From Myxococcaceae bacterium (lineage in GTDB: Bacteria; Myxococcota; Myxococcia; Myxococcales; Myxococcaceae), in NCBI GenBank assembly GCA_046351675.1, contig JAXLYB010000002.1, positions 64,001 through 128,000 on the forward strand: a stretch of DNA of 64,000 nucleotides, read 5' to 3'. Below the pieces are notes generated by a model. That model saw nothing but the letters and a program-made list of their open reading frames with translations, ran no database searches and was not told where the DNA came from. Within the stretch, counting starts at the first letter, position 1. Each line of letters begins with the position of its first letter. Both the position numbers and the translations under genes were made by a program. Of this stretch, positions 3,109-18,791 are shown one piece after another.

Positions 3109-3279
3109 CTCCCTCTCCTCCCGAGGAGGAGAGGGTTGGGGTGAGGAGTGAAGCATCGAGGCGCCAACGGGCTCATGCCTCGAGCGGTGGTGCTTTCCTC
3201 TCTGCTTCAGTTCAGCCGCACTCTGCGCTCCGGGGGTTCACTCCTCACCCCGACCCTCTCCTCTGAAGAGGAGAGGGAG
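3109..3279. repeat. inverted pair of the palindromic repeat family (units 3109..3148 and 3239..3279) flanking a ~90 nt spacer that itself contains a hairpin
   Basis: CTCCCTCTCCTCCCGAGGAGGAGAGGGTTGGGGTGAGGAG ... CACTCCTCACCCCGACCCTCTCCTCTGAAGAGGAGAGGGAG. It lies between the convergent gene ends at 3097 and 3291. Confidence 0.85.
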
Positions 3280-12617: not shown

Positions 12618-14342
12618 ATGAACAAGGTGCTGCTGCTGTGCGCTGCAGTCGTCGTTGCGTCGTGCGCGTCGGTGCGGTGGGGCGGTGCGGCGTCGATGGC
12701 CGAGGAGAAGTTCCCGTCGCGCGCGGAGGTCGCGAAGCTGCTCGCGCGGCCGCCGGTGCTCGACGTCGCGAAGGTGAGCGCCGACCCGGTCGAAGAGTGG
12801 GAGCTCGTCGGGCCCTTCCCCGACACGCTGACCGCGACCCCGGTGCGCGCCGAGAGCGCGTGGGAAAAGGCGCTGGTGTCGGCGAACCCCGCCTTCGCGC
12901 AGGCGCTCACCGAGGACCACCGCTGCATCGCGCGCGAGGTCGCCCGCTACGTCGCGGCGAAACAGAAGAGCTACCCGGGCCACTCGCTGGAGCGCTTCAT
13001 CGAGTCCCGCTGCGCGACGACCGCGAAGGACGTGCACCTGCGCAGCCTCACCGGCACGGTGCCGAAGAACGTCACCGAGGAAAAGTGGCTCGAGGAATGG
13101 AAGGCCGACCTCGCGAAGATGGCGAAGCTCGACGGCGCCGACCTCGCCGGCATCGCCGTGGCGCGCGAGGGAGACTCCGCGGCGTTGATCATCGCCACCT
13201 CGGAAGCGGGCGCCATCTTCGCCAAGCCCGTGCCCGTGGTCGCGAAGGGGCTCACCACCGTGGAACTGCGCGGGCGGCTCGGCCGCGGGGGCGCGTATCG
13301 CATCGGCGCGGTCATCAACCAGGGTGAGCTCGGCTCGGAAGAGTGTCACCCGCTCGACGCGACCTCGCCGCCGGAGTTCGCGTTCAGCTGCACCGTGAAG
13401 GCCGGCGACACGCGCGCGGCCGTCGAGATTGGCGCGTTCGACGAGGGCCGCATTCTCGGGCGCAAGGTGGTCGACTTCGTCGTCTTTCCCACCGGCGAAG
13501 CGCCGAAGAAGTGGTCGCGGCCGAAGGGCTCGCAGAACGTGCCCGAGGGACTCTTCGCGGCGCGCTTCCTCGCCGAGGTGAACGCCTTCCGCCAGCGCGC
13601 GGGCCTGGGAATGCTGACCGAGGCGAAGGACCAGTCGGCGACCGCTGCGCTGCTCGCACCGCACTACTTCGCCGCGAGCTTCGGCCAGACCGACCCGCTC
13701 GACGGCGACCTCGTCGCGCTGGCGATGATGGCCGGGTGGGACGTCCCGCTGGAGAAGGTGAGCTCGCACTTCGGCGGCGAGTGGATGTCGGGCACCCGCG
13801 ACCTCGGGCTGTTCCTCGAATTCGTGCTCGACAGCCCGTTCCAACGCCAGGCGCTCACCGACCCGCGCGCCACGCACATCGGGCTGGGCGCGGTGGACTC
13901 ACCCGGCGCGCTCGGCGTGCTCTTCGCGACCTACGTGCCGCTGCCGAAGTTCGACCGCAAGGAAGCCGAGATCGCCATCATCACCCGCCTCAACACGCTG
14001 CGGCTCGAGCGCAGCCTGCCGCTCGCGCAGTGGACGCTGTGGCCCGAAGACGAGGGCCAGGTCATCGAGGCCCAGCTCGCTGCGCACCGCTGGGGCCCCG
14101 CCGACGCCAGCCAGCACGCGCTCGAGAAGACCGCCGCCGTCGCGAAGGGCCGCGTGCGCGGGTACCTCCAGCTCGTCGACGACCTCGACCACTTCCAGTT
14201 TCCGCCCGAGGTGCTGCTGCGGCCCGACATCAACGTCTTCCTCGCGGTCGCCACGTACAAGGGCGAAGACTGGGCGCAGACCCGCTACGTCGTCTGCTTC
14301 GTGCTCGCGTCGAAGGGCGACATCGAGACCGCGTCGCGTTGA
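12618..14342 (+). CDS. hypothetical lipoprotein
   Basis: 574 aa. Signal peptide with lipobox (LLLCAAVVVASCAS). No confident domain assignment. Confidence 0.5.
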   Translation: MNKVLLLCAAVVVASCASVRWGGAASMAEEKFPSRAEVAKLLARPPVLDVAKVSADPVEEWELVGPFPDTLTATPVRAESAWEKALVSANPAFAQALTEDHRCIAREVARYVAAKQKSYPGHSLERFIESRCATTAKDVHLRSLTGTVPKNVTEEKWLEEWKADLAKMAKLDGADLAGIAVAREGDSAALIIATSEAGAIFAKPVPVVAKGLTTVELRGRLGRGGAYRIGAVINQGELGSEECHPLDATSPPEFAFSCTVKAGDTRAAVEIGAFDEGRILGRKVVDFVVFPTGEAPKKWSRPKGSQNVPEGLFAARFLAEVNAFRQRAGLGMLTEAKDQSATAALLAPHYFAASFGQTDPLDGDLVALAMMAGWDVPLEKVSSHFGGEWMSGTRDLGLFLEFVLDSPFQRQALTDPRATHIGLGAVDSPGALGVLFATYVPLPKFDRKEAEIAIITRLNTLRLERSLPLAQWTLWPEDEGQVIEAQLAAHRWGPADASQHALEKTAAVAKGRVRGYLQLVDDLDHFQFPPEVLLRPDINVFLAVATYKGEDWAQTRYVVCFVLASKGDIETASR

Positions 14343-14487: not shown

Positions 14488-15224
14488 TCACTCGCGCGGC
14501 ACGAAGACGCGCAGCTCGCCCGTCGTCTTGTAGTGGCCGAGCGCGCCCTGGCCGTCACCCGAGAGGCCCTGCCCCTTCGCGTTCGGCGTCAGCGTGATGA
14601 CCTTGCCGGTGCCCGGGTCGTTCGCGCTGTAGGTCACCTTGCCGTCGGCGCCCACCGACTTGCCGGTGATGCACACCCAGTGGTCGGTGCCGTTGCTGCC
14701 GCCGTTGCTCCCGGCCTTGTAGTCGACGCCGACGACGACCGGCCGGCCGGCATCGAGCTGCGCGTCGATGGTGGCGCGCGTGAAGCTCTCGCGGCGCACG
14801 TCGAGGTTGCGGGCGCGGCCCACGCGGCTCCAGTCGAGCGCGTCGCCGGCGTAGCCCTTGTTGTCCTTGAGCCAGGCGTTGAGGCCCTCGGGCGTCACGG
14901 GCTTTCCGCTGATGGCGCTCATCGCCATCGCGCTCGACGACATCGCGCAGCCCGAGCGGGGGTGGTGGTGTCGCCCAGGCGCTGGTGGCCCCAGCGCGCG
15001 TCGCCTTGCTTGAAGACGGGGACGCCGTTCGACGAGGTGATGTCGGCGGGGAGCGTGATGGTGGGCGCGGGCTCGAGGGTCTTCGGCTTCTTCGGCTGCG
15101 CTTGCCAGCCGGCGGTGCGCGTGGCGTCGGCGGGCGCGGCGGCCACCGGAAGACGTGGGCGGTGCGCGGGCGCGGTCCCCGGCGTGGCGACGCGAGGGGC
15201 GTTGGGGGTCACACGCTGAGGCAT
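14488..15224 (-). pseudogene. peptidase C39-like (papain-fold) secreted protein, interrupted by a -1/+2 frameshift in a C5 homopolymer near 14950
   Basis: ORF 14919..15224 encodes ...VPVFKQGDARWGHQRLGDTTTP and then runs to a stop. The next frame continues ...SGCAMSSSAMAMSAISGKPV...DHWVCITG, and together these give the C39-like pattern Q...W...GC(A/G).S.AM...H. One extra C in the run ACCACCACCCCCGCT would restore ...GDTTTPRSGCAMSSS... Confidence 0.45.
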
Positions 15225-15243
15225 GCTCCCGAGTGTATGCGAG

Positions 15244-15774
15244 TCAGGGGCTGACGAACTGCACCCCGTCGAACGCCACGGGCGGCACGCCGTCAGAGCG
15301 CTTCTGGCGGCTCGCGTCGGACTCGAACGGGGTGACCGTCACGATGACCTTGCGCGTGGGAATCACGTCGGCCGAGCGCAGCTCGTACCGCCCCGAGATA
15401 CCCGGCTGGCACTGCGTCACCTTCGACAGCTGCGTGCCCAGCGCAGTGCTCGGCAGGAGGATGACACCGCCGTCAGCCACCACCACGCCTGCGTCCGTGA
15501 CGCCGGCGTCGCTGATCCCCGCGTCGCTGGTGCCCGCATCACCCGAGCCGGCATCGACGGGCGCAGGCTCCGACCACGTCGCCGTCATGCAGAGCTCGGT
15601 GACCCGCTCGAGGTCCGCCCCGCTCACGCCGAAGGTGCTCAAGCCCATGCTGGCCGTCACCAGCACCTTGCCGTCGCTCTCGCGCGCCGCGGTCACCGAC
15701 GTCGGGAAGAACTCGACGCGAGAGCCACACGCCACGACCAACAACACCGCTGCCACCAGGAGGGTTCGGTTCAT
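15244..15774 (-). CDS. hypothetical lipoprotein
   Basis: Internal ATG (cat 15772..15774) gives MNRTLLVAAVLLVVACGS with a lipobox, then an Asp/Gly/Ala-rich linker. It lies 20 nt upstream of the C39-like gene on the same strand and is divergent from the ECF sigma gene. Confidence 0.55.
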   Translation of the reverse strand: MNRTLLVAAVLLVVACGSRVEFFPTSVTAARESDGKVLVTASMGLSTFGVSGADLERVTELCMTATWSEPAPVDAGSGDAGTSDAGISDAGVTDAGVVVADGGVILLPSTALGTQLSKVTQCQPGISGRYELRSADVIPTRKVIVTVTPFESDASRQKRSDGVPPVAFDGVQFVSP

Positions 15775-15893
15775 GGCGGCCGCGCTGTGCAAGCCGGGCA
15801 CCAGCACGGTGGAGCGAGCGTGCGCCATCCCGCTCCCTTTCGCGCGCGACAGGAGCGTCACGGCACGGCCGCGCCTGTGCCACGCTCGCCCCG

Positions 15894-16688
15894 GTGACGC
15901 CCTTCACGGCCTGGCTCACGCACCACACCGCGGCACTCGCCGAGCGCTGGCCCGGCGTCGCCCCGCCCGCCGACCCCTCGGCGATCGAGGCCCGCCTCAA
16001 CGGCGCGACTGATCTCCACGCCCGCGCTGGCGCCGACCTCCTCCTCGCCGACGCGTGCTTGCGCGGCGACACCCGCGCCCTCGAGTACCTCGACGCGCTC
16101 CTCCGCACCGAGGTCCGCCGCGCCGTCACCCCGCTCGACGCGAGCGGCGTCTTCGTCGACGAAGTGACGCAGCTCGTGCGTGAGCGCCTGCTCCTGGGCA
16201 CCGAGGGCCGGCGCCGCCTCGAGGACTACGCCGGCGAAGGCTCACTCGCGGCCTGGGTCCGCGCCGTCGCCGTGCGCGTCGCCCTCAACGCCCGCGCCCG
16301 CACGGGAAAAGAGGAGCTCGTCTCCCAACTCCCCGACGCGCCGCTCGCCGACCCCGACCCCGAGCTCGCGCTCTTGCGCGCCCGCCACAAAGAAGCCTTC
16401 CGCGACGCCTTCACCGCCGCGCTCGAGGTGCTCTCGCCGCGCGACCGCACGCTGCTCCGCCTCACGTCCATCGACGGCCTCAGCCTCGCGCGCGTCGGCC
16501 AGATGTATGGAAAAGACGCCTCCACCATCTCGCGCTGGTTGGCCGCCAGCCGCGAGGTGTTGCTGCAGCGCACGCGCGCCACGCTGGCCACGCGCCTGCA
16601 ACTCACCGAATCGGCGCTCGACAGCGTGATGCGCGCCGCCGATTCCGAGCTGCACCTGAGCCTCGCCCGCCTGCTGGAGTCGCGGTGA
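15894..16688 (+). CDS. ECF-type RNA polymerase sigma factor (sigma-70 regions 2 and 4)
   Basis: The region-2-like segment is ALEYLDALLRTEV...VFVDEVTQLVRERLL. The region-4 HTH is LSPRDRTLLRLTSIDGLSLARVGQMYGKDASTISRWLAASREVL. The N-terminal extent is uncertain. Confidence 0.7.
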   Translation: MTPFTAWLTHHTAALAERWPGVAPPADPSAIEARLNGATDLHARAGADLLLADACLRGDTRALEYLDALLRTEVRRAVTPLDASGVFVDEVTQLVRERLLLGTEGRRRLEDYAGEGSLAAWVRAVAVRVALNARARTGKEELVSQLPDAPLADPDPELALLRARHKEAFRDAFTAALEVLSPRDRTLLRLTSIDGLSLARVGQMYGKDASTISRWLAASREVLLQRTRATLATRLQLTESALDSVMRAADSELHLSLARLLESR

Positions 16689-16745
16689 CGAACTATTTTG
16701 CAAGGCCCCGCCGCGGGCCCTGTCCCCTCGTCAGGAGGAAGCACC

Positions 16746-18791
16746 ATGTGCCCTGACGAGAACACCCTGCAGAAGTTCGCCAACGGCCAACTCACCGAGA
16801 TGACGGCCCTCGAGGCGCACCTCGACGGCTGTGAGGCGTGTCGCCGCGCGGTCGCCGCCGCCGCGTCAGACGCCACCCTGCCCGCCCAGCTGCCGTCGTC
16901 GACGCTGAGCCCCGGCCAGCGGGTGGCCCGGTACGAAGTCGAGCGCGAGCTCGGCCGCGGCGGCATGGGCGTCGTCTACCAGGCGCGCGACGTGACGCTC
17001 GACCGGCGCGTGGCGCTCAAGATTCTGCACGCGCGGCGCGACGAGGCGGCGCAGGCGCGGCTGCTGCGCGAGGCGCAGGTGATGGCGAAGCTGACGCACC
17101 CCAACGTGGTGCCGGTCTTCGAGCTGGGCGAGTGGAAGAACGACCTCTACCTCGTGATGGAGCTGGTGCCGGGCGTCACCCTCGAGGCGTGGCTCAAGCG
17201 CGAGAAGCACCGCCGCCGCGACATCGTGCAGGCCTTCCTCGCCGCGGGCCGGGGGCTCGCCGCTGCGCACGCCGCGGGCGTGGTGCACCGCGACTTCAAG
17301 CCGGCCAACGTGCTGATGGGCCTCGACGGCCGCGTGCGCGTCACCGACTTCGGCCTCTCGCGCCCCGGGCCCGCGCTGGAGCTGCCCGCGACCGACTCCG
17401 CGCTCGTCACGCGCGACGGCAGCATCGTCGGCACGCTGGCGTACATGTCGCCCGAGCAGCTCGACGGGAAGACGGCCGACGAGCGGTCTGATCAATTCAG
17501 CTTCTGCGTGTCGCTGGTCGAGGCGCTGCAGGGCACGCGCCCCTTCAAGGGCGAGAAATGGACCGAGCTCGCGAAGAGCGTGACGGAGCCGCCCTCGCTC
17601 TCGGGCGTGCCCCGCGCGATGCGCTCGGTGTTGAAGCGCGGCCTCGCGCACGACCCGGCGCACCGCTACGGCTCGCTGACCGCGCTGCTCAACGCGCTCG
17701 AGCGCAGCCAGCAGCTGGGCTGGGGCGCGGTGGGCGTCACCGGCACCATCGCGGCGATGGTCTCGTTCCTCTTCGTCGCGCCGCCCGCGTGGAGGCCCGC
17801 CGCGCTGCTCGGCTTCGACAAGTCCGCGCAGTCCATCACCTTCCCCGATGAGGACCTGGTGCCGGTGGTCATCGCCTCGCGCGACATCAAGGCCGGCACG
17901 GTGGTCGAGATGGAGATGCTCGCGCAGCGCGTGATGCCCAAGCCCTTCGTCACGCAGTCGGTGATCAGGCCCGACTCGGTCTCGTACATCGTCGGCCAGA
18001 AGCTCAACATCGACGTCTACACGGGCGACGTGCTGACCTGGCCGCAGTTCGAGACGGTCGAAGACGCGAAGAAGAACGCCGCGGCCGAGGAAGAGCGGCT
18101 GCCCGTGGTCGTCGCCGCGCACGACCTCCCCGCGGGCACGGTGGTGACCGCCGACATGCTGATGCAGCGCCAGTTGCCTCGGCAGTTCGCCACCACGTCC
18201 ATCGTGAAGCCCGACGCGCTCAGCTACGTGCTCGGCCAGAAGCTCCTCGTCGACGTGCAGGCCGGTGACCTCGTGCTGTGGTCGCAGTTCGAGACCAGCA
18301 AGCAGCAATCGGGTGAGGAGCTGGTGACGGTGCTCACCGCCGCCGACAACGTGCCCGAGGGCGCGACGCTCAGCCCCGACCGCATCGTGCACAAGCAGGT
18401 GCCGAAGTCGCTGGCCACCAAGTCGGTGCTGCGCCCGCAGCAGACGCCGCACGTGTGGGGCCACCCGCTGCTCGCCAATTTGAAGAAGGGCGACCTCCTG
18501 CTCTGGTCGCAGCTCTCGAAGGACCAGTTCACCGACGACGGCCTCGACTCACAGACCATCGCCAACCAGGCCGAGCGCCTCTCTCCGCTGATCACCGACT
18601 GCGCGAAGAGCGACCCGGCACCGCCGGTGAAGTTCAGCGTGCGCGCCGACGGCTCGCTCTTCGACGTGCGCGTGAACACCGAGAACGCGACGCTGAAGGA
18701 CTGCGTCTTGCGCGCGCTCGAGAAGGAGAAGCTGCCGAGCGCGAAGCACGCCACGTGGGACGTGAGCCTCACCATCAATTCCGTGCCGTGA
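16746..18791 (+). CDS. Ser/Thr protein kinase with N-terminal ZAS-type anti-sigma motif, one TM segment, three periplasmic SAF-domain repeats and a C-terminal domain
   Basis: ATG at 16746 has a good RBS (AGGAGGA 7 nt upstream). The N-terminus MCPDENTLQKFANGQLTEMTALEAHLDGCEACR carries the H-x3-C-x2-C ZAS motif. Kinase motifs are RYEVERELGRGGMGVVYQA, HRDFKPANVL, DFGLS and YMSPEQ. The TM segment is TGTIAAMVSFLFVAPP. Three repeats of ~70 aa of the form VV.A..D...GTVV...ML..R..P..F...S...PD..SY.LGQKL..DV..GD.L.W.QFE are SAF-like. Confidence 0.8.
   Translation: MCPDENTLQKFANGQLTEMTALEAHLDGCEACRRAVAAAASDATLPAQLPSSTLSPGQRVARYEVERELGRGGMGVVYQARDVTLDRRVALKILHARRDEAAQARLLREAQVMAKLTHPNVVPVFELGEWKNDLYLVMELVPGVTLEAWLKREKHRRRDIVQAFLAAGRGLAAAHAAGVVHRDFKPANVLMGLDGRVRVTDFGLSRPGPALELPATDSALVTRDGSIVGTLAYMSPEQLDGKTADERSDQFSFCVSLVEALQGTRPFKGEKWTELAKSVTEPPSLSGVPRAMRSVLKRGLAHDPAHRYGSLTALLNALERSQQLGWGAVGVTGTIAAMVSFLFVAPPAWRPAALLGFDKSAQSITFPDEDLVPVVIASRDIKAGTVVEMEMLAQRVMPKPFVTQSVIRPDSVSYIVGQKLNIDVYTGDVLTWPQFETVEDAKKNAAAEEERLPVVVAAHDLPAGTVVTADMLMQRQLPRQFATTSIVKPDALSYVLGQKLLVDVQAGDLVLWSQFETSKQQSGEELVTVLTAADNVPEGATLSPDRIVHKQVPKSLATKSVLRPQQTPHVWGHPLLANLKKGDLLLWSQLSKDQFTDDGLDSQTIANQAERLSPLITDCAKSDPAPPVKFSVRADGSLFDVRVNTENATLKDCVLRALEKEKLPSAKHATWDVSLTINSVP

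Follow-up and report, generated by a model that had tools for sequence, protein, structure and literature searches.

The DNA analyzed here, in its entirety referred to as the window, is a stretch of 64,000 nt with a G+C content of about 70% from a Myxococcaceae bacterium (GCA_046351675.1, contig JAXLYB010000002.1, positions 64,001-128,000 of the forward strand). It harbors a gene for a sigma factor of the extracytoplasmic function (ECF) type that is directly followed by a gene for a membrane-bound Ser/Thr kinase, and the latter protein starts with a short domain reminiscent of zinc-binding anti-sigma (ZAS) factors. The open reading frame (ORF) of the sigma factor has a GTG start and encodes 264 aa, while the kinase ORF extends from the ATG at 16746 to 18791 (+) and encodes 681 aa. 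This 681-aa protein is 100% identical to the NCBI entry 'MAG: protein kinase [Myxococcaceae bacterium]' (MAG, metagenome-assembled genome). The order given in an initial annotation of this DNA, i.e. sigma gene, 57 nt of spacer and kinase gene, was confirmed by reading of the ORFs and the sequence, and the sequence features noted there were all recovered in place. The kinase ATG is in frame with the stop codon of the sigma gene. A longer 697-aa form of the kinase, starting with TTG at 16698, was considered and discarded as unsupported: the homologues begin at or just before Met-Cys-Pro-Asp-Glu-Asn.

The sigma factor and the receptor kinase

With sigma2 and sigma4 as its only sigma domains and a clear match to a family model, the 264-aa protein is an ECF (group 4) sigma-70 factor. 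It scores 212.6 bits with the NCBIfam model TIGR03001 (Sig-70_gmx1, 'RNA polymerase sigma-70 factor, Myxococcales family 1'; cutoff 154.6) and 53.4 bits with the general ECF model TIGR02937 (cutoff 42.9); a Pfam scan detected region 4 only. An AlphaFold2 (AF2) model built from 70 homologues (predicted local distance difference test, pLDDT, 90.1) displays an N-terminal extension (residues 1-45) with helices at 3-18 and 29-35, followed by sigma2 (about 46-140), a disordered linker (141-155), sigma4 (156-235) and a C-terminal helix (239-263). The best PDB matches of this model found with Foldseek are ECF sigma factors only, namely M. tuberculosis SigE, AlgU, E. coli sigmaE, SigL, SigK and SigW. 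At the site of the canonical DxxDxxQE motif in region 2.2, members of the family have (F/L)-V-D-E-V-T-Q, with an acidic residue at position 89 in 91% and at position 90 in 100% of the 70 homologues. Across the same homologues, Ser244 is invariant and Ser251 and Ser256 are near-invariant in the C-terminal helix. The N-terminal extension is conserved as well and bears an RWPGV motif.

Judging from its sequence, the second protein is a Hanks-type Ser/Thr kinase with an intact catalytic site and is predicted to be active. The relevant motifs comprise the G-loop GRGGMGVV at residue 70, VALK (K92), HRDFKPAN at 181 (D183 and N188), DFG at 201 and SPE at 235. An AF2 model derived from a 63-sequence alignment (pLDDT 86.8) was submitted as a whole to a fold search with Foldseek. 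This search returned matches for the kinase domain alone, the best ones being M. tuberculosis PknA and PknB, Stk1/PknB from S. aureus and PknI from M. tuberculosis (target-normalised TM-scores of 0.83-0.85), and none for the N- or C-terminal domains.

Beyond the single transmembrane (TM) helix, the protein continues with three SAF domains, for which Pfam SAF (PF08666) gives an E-value of 5e-24 on the whole protein. Taken individually, the repeats score 36.4, 46.3 and 20.8 bits (cutoff 21), so that the third one is marginal; the NCBIfam CpaB model TIGR03177 matches in three stretches of the protein, and three beta domains are seen in this region of the AF2 model. The C-terminal domain yields weak sequence matches far below the respective cutoffs, i.e. 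to TonB_C (PF03544, E=0.21) and to myxo_SS_tail (NF033768, E=0.066). It may be TonB_C-like or resemble the AgmX/PglI tail, and the predicted topology would be compatible with this assignment. Motif scan, Pfam and AF2 thus reproduce the architecture described in the initial annotation, consisting of the HLDGCEAC motif, the full set of kinase motifs, one TM helix, three SAF repeats and a further C-terminal domain (Table 1).

Table 1. Features of the sigma factor-kinase locus and its immediate surroundings (coordinates of the window; residues refer to the respective protein). L058 is a 7,991-bp contig from JGI (Joint Genome Institute) in which the encoded kinase is identical and the blocks that align with the window show 97.9-99.8% identity.
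Feature	Coordinates	Strand	Evidence or remark
ECF-type sigma gene, TIGR03001 'Myxococcales family 1'	15894..16688	+	NCBIfam, AF2, Foldseek
Sigma region 2.2 motif F87-V-D-E-V-T-Q-L94	16152..16175	+	Site of canonical DxxDxxQE motif; D89 and E90 acidic
Conserved C-terminal helix of sigma factor beyond sigma4, residues 239-263	16608..16682	+	70-sequence alignment, AF2
Spacer between sigma and kinase genes	16689..16745	+	57 nt; ribosome-binding site AGGAGGA at 16733-16739, seven nt before ATG 16746
N-terminal zinc-finger anti-sigma-like domain, kinase residues 1-40	16746..16865	+	zf-HC2, profile search, AF2
Disordered linker, kinase residues 41-58	16866..16919	+	AF2 pLDDT <50 at 43-47; no helix by DSSP
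Hanks-type Ser/Thr kinase domain, residues 59-322	16920..17711	+	Pfam Pkinase, 1.4e-44
Single TM helix, residues 326-346	17721..17783	+	Kyte-Doolittle peak 1.9; AF2 helix 326-344
Three tandem periplasmic SAF (beta-clip, CpaB/FlgA-like) domains, residues ~371-436, 451-516, 526-592	17856..18521	+	Pfam, NCBIfam, AF2
C-terminal periplasmic alpha/beta domain, residues 602-675, two Cys	18549..18770	+	AF2 alpha-beta-beta-alpha-beta, pLDDT ~90
Cys-rich predicted lipoprotein gene, 603 aa	18804..20615	+	Starts 12 nt past kinase stop codon
Divergent predicted lipoprotein gene, lipobox LVVAC	15244..15774	-	Translation; absent from L058
C39_2-like peptidase gene, disrupted	14488..15224	-	Pfam Peptidase_C39_2, 6e-5; 4-nt deletion at ~14960/14961 relative to L058

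An anti-sigma-like zinc finger ahead of the kinase domain

The HLDGCEAC motif occupies residues 25-32 of the kinase and provides, together with an upstream cysteine, the putative zinc ligands C2, H25, C29 and C32. The surrounding N-terminus is predicted to fold into three helices (residues 5-12, 19-28 and 30-40; AF2 pLDDT 87-90). As an isolated 61-residue segment it matches Pfam zf-HC2 with 25.1 bits (cutoff 22.2), and the same model matched the N-termini of all 34 diverse homologues tested. In 63 full-length homologues, C2, H25, D27, C29 and C32 are invariant and hence level with the catalytic residues K92, D183, N188 and D201. The motif is present in about 105 of the 120 best kinase homologues, always 45-70 residues before the G-loop, and those lacking it are N-terminally truncated fragments or unrelated kinases.

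A profile of the N-terminus searched against the whole PDB retrieved RslA (3hug_B, 1.8e-5), DdvA from M. xanthus (8rlz_A, 5e-4), ChrR (5e-3) and, more weakly, RsiW. All matches at E<0.01 are anti-sigma factors with the exception of one CHAT-domain protein (8rot_B), which is matched at its N-terminal zf-HC2 domain, and an NCBIfam scan of the N-terminus returned anti-sigma families exclusively. Cys2 of the kinase aligns with the zinc ligand His6 of ChrR, and Corallococcus homologues carry His at this very position, as ChrR does. Using phmmer, the 62-residue N-terminus was compared with 1.84 billion representative proteins, which resulted in 82 matches at E<=1e-3. Among the 69 new proteins, 56 match zf-HC2 and 30 match Pkinase; the others are either short fragments or proteins in which several ZAS motifs occur in tandem. 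The latter type is represented by P0245, P0250, P0252, P0294, P0260, P0261 and P0259, which contain 2-5 tandem CPDE...H-x3-C-x2-C modules, and in P0259 three copies of the module are followed by a kinase domain.

These data bear directly on the question of whether the motif is a product of chance or precedes the actual start codon. Such a reading could invoke the zf-HC2 score of the 697-aa TTG-start form, which at 20.3 bits falls just below the cutoff. It is opposed by the score of the domain alone, by the ribosome-binding site and ATG immediately upstream, and by the invariance of the motif in the homologues together with the 82 matches from the representative proteins, while the chance expectation of H-x3-C-x2-C in a 40-residue stretch is about 1e-4 by a rough estimate. 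Coincidence is thus refuted by conservation and its residual probability is negligible; the ZAS motif proposed in the initial annotation is real and is located downstream of a good ribosome-binding site and ATG. On this basis, the kinase N-terminus is a genuine, conserved zinc-finger domain of the anti-sigma type, with zinc binding being putative.

How far the resemblance extends can be judged from class I anti-sigma domains, in which helices 1-3 form a bundle on sigma4, whereas helix 4 rests on regions 2.1 and 2.2 of sigma2 and holds most of the co-evolving contacts as well as most of those for inhibition and specificity (PMC7406223). Of these hallmarks, the kinase N-terminus possesses H-x3-C-x2-C with an upstream ligand as well as the three-helix bundle; the sigma2-binding helix 4 is missing. 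Neither AF2 nor DSSP predicted a helix 4 at residues 41-58, where a proline-rich linker with a semi-conserved T44-L-P (consensus AAAASExTLP) runs straight into strand beta1 of the kinase (about residue 59). The place of helix 4 is consequently taken by this linker and then by the kinase domain. Because of the missing helix, full sequestration in the classical manner appears less likely than docking via sigma4.

A paired module and its possible mode of control

To place the two genes in a wider context, 55 related loci were collected as matches of a sigma-family profile in a contig collection with one genome per species. All are from Myxococcota and span Archangium, Myxococcus, Corallococcus, Pyxidicoccus and Hyalangium as well as Kofleriaceae, Polyangiaceae and Polyangia MAGs. 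Six-frame scans with hidden Markov models located an ORF combining ZAS and kinase domains next to the sigma gene in 48 loci, directly downstream in 37 and upstream or divergent in 11, and at one more locus the ZAS start is lost at a contig end, giving 49/55 in all. In cultured Myxococcus, Corallococcus, Pyxidicoccus and Hyalangium, merely 4-9 nt separate the sigma stop from the kinase start. The reverse check gave a consistent picture, in that two ZAS-kinases with a T2SS-T3SS_pil_N sensor also sit just downstream of an ECF sigma gene. Moreover, sigma identity tracks the identity of the ZAS domain (r = 0.88) and of the kinase domain (r = 0.92) in 35 pairs, although such mirror-tree correlations are inflated by shared phylogeny. 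The sensor domains vary among the homologues (SAF, pil_N, TPR) around a constant ZAS-kinase core, as would be expected of a modular receptor. The 64-kb window is devoid of further sigma, kinase or ZAS genes. The pairing of sigma factor and kinase suggested in the initial annotation is therefore borne out by its retention in 49 of the 55 loci and by the lack of an alternative anti-sigma candidate or paralogue in the window.

The pairing also affects a further explanation, according to which the zinc finger is unconnected with the sigma factor and serves the kinase as a structural, dimerisation or redox-sensing element, with gene adjacency merely reflecting co-expression. H-x3-C-x2-C by itself is no proof of sigma binding, and zf-HC2 domains do occur outside classical anti-sigma factors, as exemplified by the CHAT protein 8rot_B and the tandem-ZAS proteins. 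Yet, an unconnected element would hardly be expected to be tightly paired with one sigma family in several Myxococcota families and in combination with different sensors, nor would it account for the co-diversification of the two genes and the short intergenic gaps in cultured species. This explanation is thus improbable. Taken together, homology and gene pairing give good support to a cognate two-gene module of a sigma factor and an anti-sigma-kinase, which is a member of a large Myxococcota family and not unique to the window.

Two peculiarities of individual loci may be added. At loci with pil_N-sensor ZAS-kinases, a small secreted pil_N protein is encoded between sigma factor and kinase or an RcpC protein upstream of the sigma gene (L056 2455-2991; L057 1563-2018; L018-L021, with 550-617 nt between sigma and kinase genes), which could point to a partner protein in the periplasm. 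The closest relatives possess a second Hanks kinase gene, lacking a ZAS domain, about 1 kb upstream of the sigma gene on the same strand (L007 613-2808, L008 1-1989, L011 581-2785, L012 567-2777, L015 627-2837).

Pairs of ECF sigma factors and kinases are established for group ECF43 and predicted for ECF59-62, 217, 267 and 283 (PMC7826278). In ECF43 sigma factors, region 2.2 is uncharged (QTTA or STTA; PMC13147305, PMC8999054), and phosphorylation of a Thr at this site restores the charge needed for binding of the beta-prime clamp (PMC8999054, PMC8103513, PMC13147305). As in the ECF43 pairs EcfP/PknT from V. parahaemolyticus and EcfK/PknS from X. citri, the sigma gene of the window adjoins a gene for a TM Hanks kinase with a periplasmic sensor and a separate anti-sigma gene is absent; the sensor consists of three SAF domains here versus TPR repeats in the ECF43 kinases. 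In contrast to ECF43, region 2.2 reads acidic V-D-E and has Asp89 instead of Ser or Thr at the phospho-site. At the sequence level, the adjacent Hanks kinase is hence shared with ECF43, but the loss of acidic residues in region 2.2 and the phosphorylatable Thr are not. With the acidic residues retained, the published logic of ECF43 phospho-activation is not directly transferable, and the presence of D89 and E90 suggests that the sigma factor, in contrast to those of ECF43, is not inactive by itself and plausibly depends on an inhibitor.

Nevertheless, the sigma factor might be governed purely by phospho-activation like EcfP/PknT and EcfK/PknS, in which case the zinc domain would be a docking or specificity element devoid of inhibitory function. 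ECF sigma factors paired with Ser/Thr kinases are an established regulatory type (PMC7826278, PMC8999054), and helix 4 as the main inhibitory element is absent from a protein whose kinase domain is catalytically complete. In addition, PknS from X. citri contains a conserved N-terminal extension of 83 residues, for which 3-4 antiparallel helices are predicted and whose role is unexplained (PMC13147305). The window kinase likewise bears a helical extension N-terminal to its kinase domain, and by analogy the PknS extension may be a docking domain of the same anti-sigma-like type. However, the acidic residues of region 2.2, whose loss renders ECF43 phosphorylation-dependent, are kept in the sigma factor, the counterpart of the ECF43 phospho-site is neither Ser nor Thr, and a zinc-finger anti-sigma fold would be unusual for a mere docking site. 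We therefore consider pure phospho-activation unlikely, albeit deserving of attention.

On the side of the anti-sigma factors, the closest parallels are class I ZAS proteins such as ChrR, RslA, RsrA, RsiW and M. xanthus DdvA, which share with the window kinase H-x3-C-x2-C with a Cys/His ligand about 23 residues upstream, the N-terminal bundle of three helices and the location of the gene directly beside an ECF sigma gene. RslA, RsiW and DdvA are, moreover, membrane-anchored and have an extracytoplasmic domain, as is the case here. The window protein deviates from all of these by the missing sigma2-binding helix 4 and by a complete Ser/Thr kinase inserted between anti-sigma domain and TM helix. 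Joint control of an ECF sigma factor by a Hanks kinase together with an anti-sigma factor that binds zinc has a precedent in M. tuberculosis, where PknB acts on SigH/RshA and SigE/RseA and phosphorylation promotes release of the sigma factor (PMC8999054). There, kinase and anti-sigma factor are separate proteins from separate loci, whereas the window encodes one polypeptide beside the sigma gene. Finally, the three periplasmic repeats match SAF, ChapFlgA and CpaB models and in this respect resemble CpaB/RcpC and FlgA. Unlike in these pilus and flagellar assembly proteins, they form the predicted sensor of a receptor kinase, and no pilus genes are found nearby.

In the full-text literature searched, which lacks most subscription journals, no description was found of a Hanks kinase with a fused zinc-finger anti-sigma domain, nor of the N-terminal extension of an ECF43-type kinase as such a zinc-binding domain, and the accession TIGR03001 led to no paper in the same literature. 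The combination of ZAS and kinase domains is already visible in precomputed Pfam annotations. As far as could be established, it is hence not unseen but merely uninterpreted.

Which mode of control might such a module employ? Our preferred explanation, to which we assign a probability of roughly 0.55, is that the sigma factor is held by a membrane kinase with its own truncated anti-sigma domain, which docks the sigma factor, while phosphorylation controls it. Helices 1-3 of the kinase, equivalent to the sigma4-binding part in solved complexes, would dock the sigma factor at the membrane, and the flexible linker of 18 residues would put the kinase domain where helix 4 would otherwise cover sigma2. 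A signal from the periplasm could then be sensed by the three SAF domains together with the C-terminal domain and alter kinase activity. Whether the sigma factor is retained or released to RNA polymerase would conceivably depend on phosphorylation, either of the sigma factor itself or of the linker within the kinase. This mechanism probably differs both from classical sequestration, which involves helix 4, and from ECF43 activation, given the acidic region 2.2. The initial annotation had proposed control of the sigma factor by an anti-sigma-kinase fusion through sequestration and/or phosphorylation. Of this proposal, the cognate module stands on the grounds of homology and pairing, while full sequestration of the classical kind is rendered less likely by the missing helix 4.

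Several observations weigh against docking combined with phosphorylation. Six of the 55 loci have no detectable ZAS-kinase, i.e. two feature a kinase without detectable ZAS domain and four neither, and the phylogenetic inflation of the mirror-tree values has already been mentioned. Without helix 4, the N-terminal domain may not inhibit the sigma factor. As to targets for phosphorylation, Ser and Thr residues conserved throughout the sigma family are confined to the sigma4 recognition helix and the C-terminal helix and could have a purely structural role there, and Thr92 in region 2.2 is kept in just 57% of the homologues.

A more specific and more tentative version, which we would sooner doubt than endorse, amounts to a third, hybrid type of ECF control. 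Here, one polypeptide would be anti-sigma factor and kinase at once, with helices 1-3 holding sigma4 and the kinase domain replacing helix 4 over sigma2, until signal-dependent phosphorylation, possibly along with thiol oxidation at the zinc site, releases or licenses an otherwise core-competent sigma factor.

Two modes of control are generally assumed for ECF sigma factors, one by sequestering anti-sigma factors and the other by Ser/Thr kinases that activate a crippled sigma factor. According to published surveys, the kinase-linked ECF groups are typically without anti-sigma factors. The module described here joins elements of both modes, as an anti-sigma-type zinc domain is fused to a kinase with predicted activity and paired with a sigma factor that is not crippled, thereby giving direct access to the question of how docking and phosphorylation work together. 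Since species of Myxococcus and Corallococcus that are in culture and amenable to genetics harbor orthologous pairs, the idea is testable. Should the hybrid type of control hold true, it would apply to a whole Myxococcota receptor family with interchangeable sensors (SAF, pil_N, TPR) and may provide a role for the N-terminal extension in ECF43 kinases like PknS.

Neighboring genes, strain differences and repeats

In the initial annotation, the divergent lipoprotein and C39-like peptidase genes were put forward as the regulon of the sigma factor, which our comparisons do not support. By tblastn, six flanking proteins (a cyclase, a CAP-like protein, the C39-like peptidase, the lipoprotein, the Cys-rich lipoprotein and a LigB dioxygenase) are absent from all 55 related loci, so that no flanking gene recurs with the module. 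The idea is weakened further by L058, as the lipoprotein gene is missing from this up to 99.8% identical contig and the frameshift in the peptidase gene is specific to the present assembly. In L058 (4678-4844), the stretch corresponding to window positions 15238-15932 (696 nt) is replaced by 168 nt that hold a dispersed repeat similar to REP (repetitive extragenic palindromic) elements. Besides the lipoprotein gene and the intergenic region, the replaced stretch includes the initial 13 codons of the sigma gene, and the sigma factor encoded by L058 has a different N-terminus and 258 aa (P0121). Thus, either the sigma promoter region differs between the strains or one of the two assemblies is wrong. 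The lack of synteny and the strain-specific replacement make the divergent genes poor candidates for a conserved regulon.

The frameshift of the peptidase gene reported in the initial annotation was found again, with the ORF split at about position 14960. An error of 1 nt in a homopolymer was considered as its cause and is excluded by the 4-nt deletion apparent from the comparison with L058, in which the peptidase is intact (245 aa) and includes the GCAMSS region with the catalytic Cys. The break is confined to this assembly, and the gene is either a pseudogene peculiar to this strain or the result of a faulty assembly. Compared with the divergent genes, the Cys-rich lipoprotein gene downstream of the kinase gene is possibly a better candidate for co-transcription with the kinase, though it is not conserved with the module. 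Its product features many Cys-rich modules and a Gly-rich linker (GGTGGG x7) and has no Pfam match.

A search for a conserved sigma-dependent promoter by two-block motif enumeration in 29 upstream regions revealed lineage-specific conservation only. For instance, the upstream regions from Corallococcus and Hyalangium share CTTCC-N15-18-(T)CGCTAAC, of which the window counterpart is only a weak look-alike (CTTTC at 15837-15841 and GTCAC at 15857-15861). A consensus scan found neither sigma70 promoters nor terminators.

Besides, the window contains 16 copies of a dispersed element of 16 nt, G(A/G)GGAGAGGGTCGGGG, versus 0.13 expected (positions 3126, 3248, 9523, 23921, 27549, 30372, 33831, 33888, 36979, 37038, 41198, 41324, 52425, 56012, 57787 and 57847). 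Like extragenic repeats of the REP type, it is often arranged as two inverted copies close to each other, and it also closely precedes the sigma start in L007, L011, L012 and L058. A further difference between window and L058 concerns the secreted CAP-like protein (574 aa). It is encoded by one ORF in the window (12618-14342, +) and by two called genes in L058 (2030-3781), with 55 nt at window positions 13298-13353 versus 82 nt in L058.

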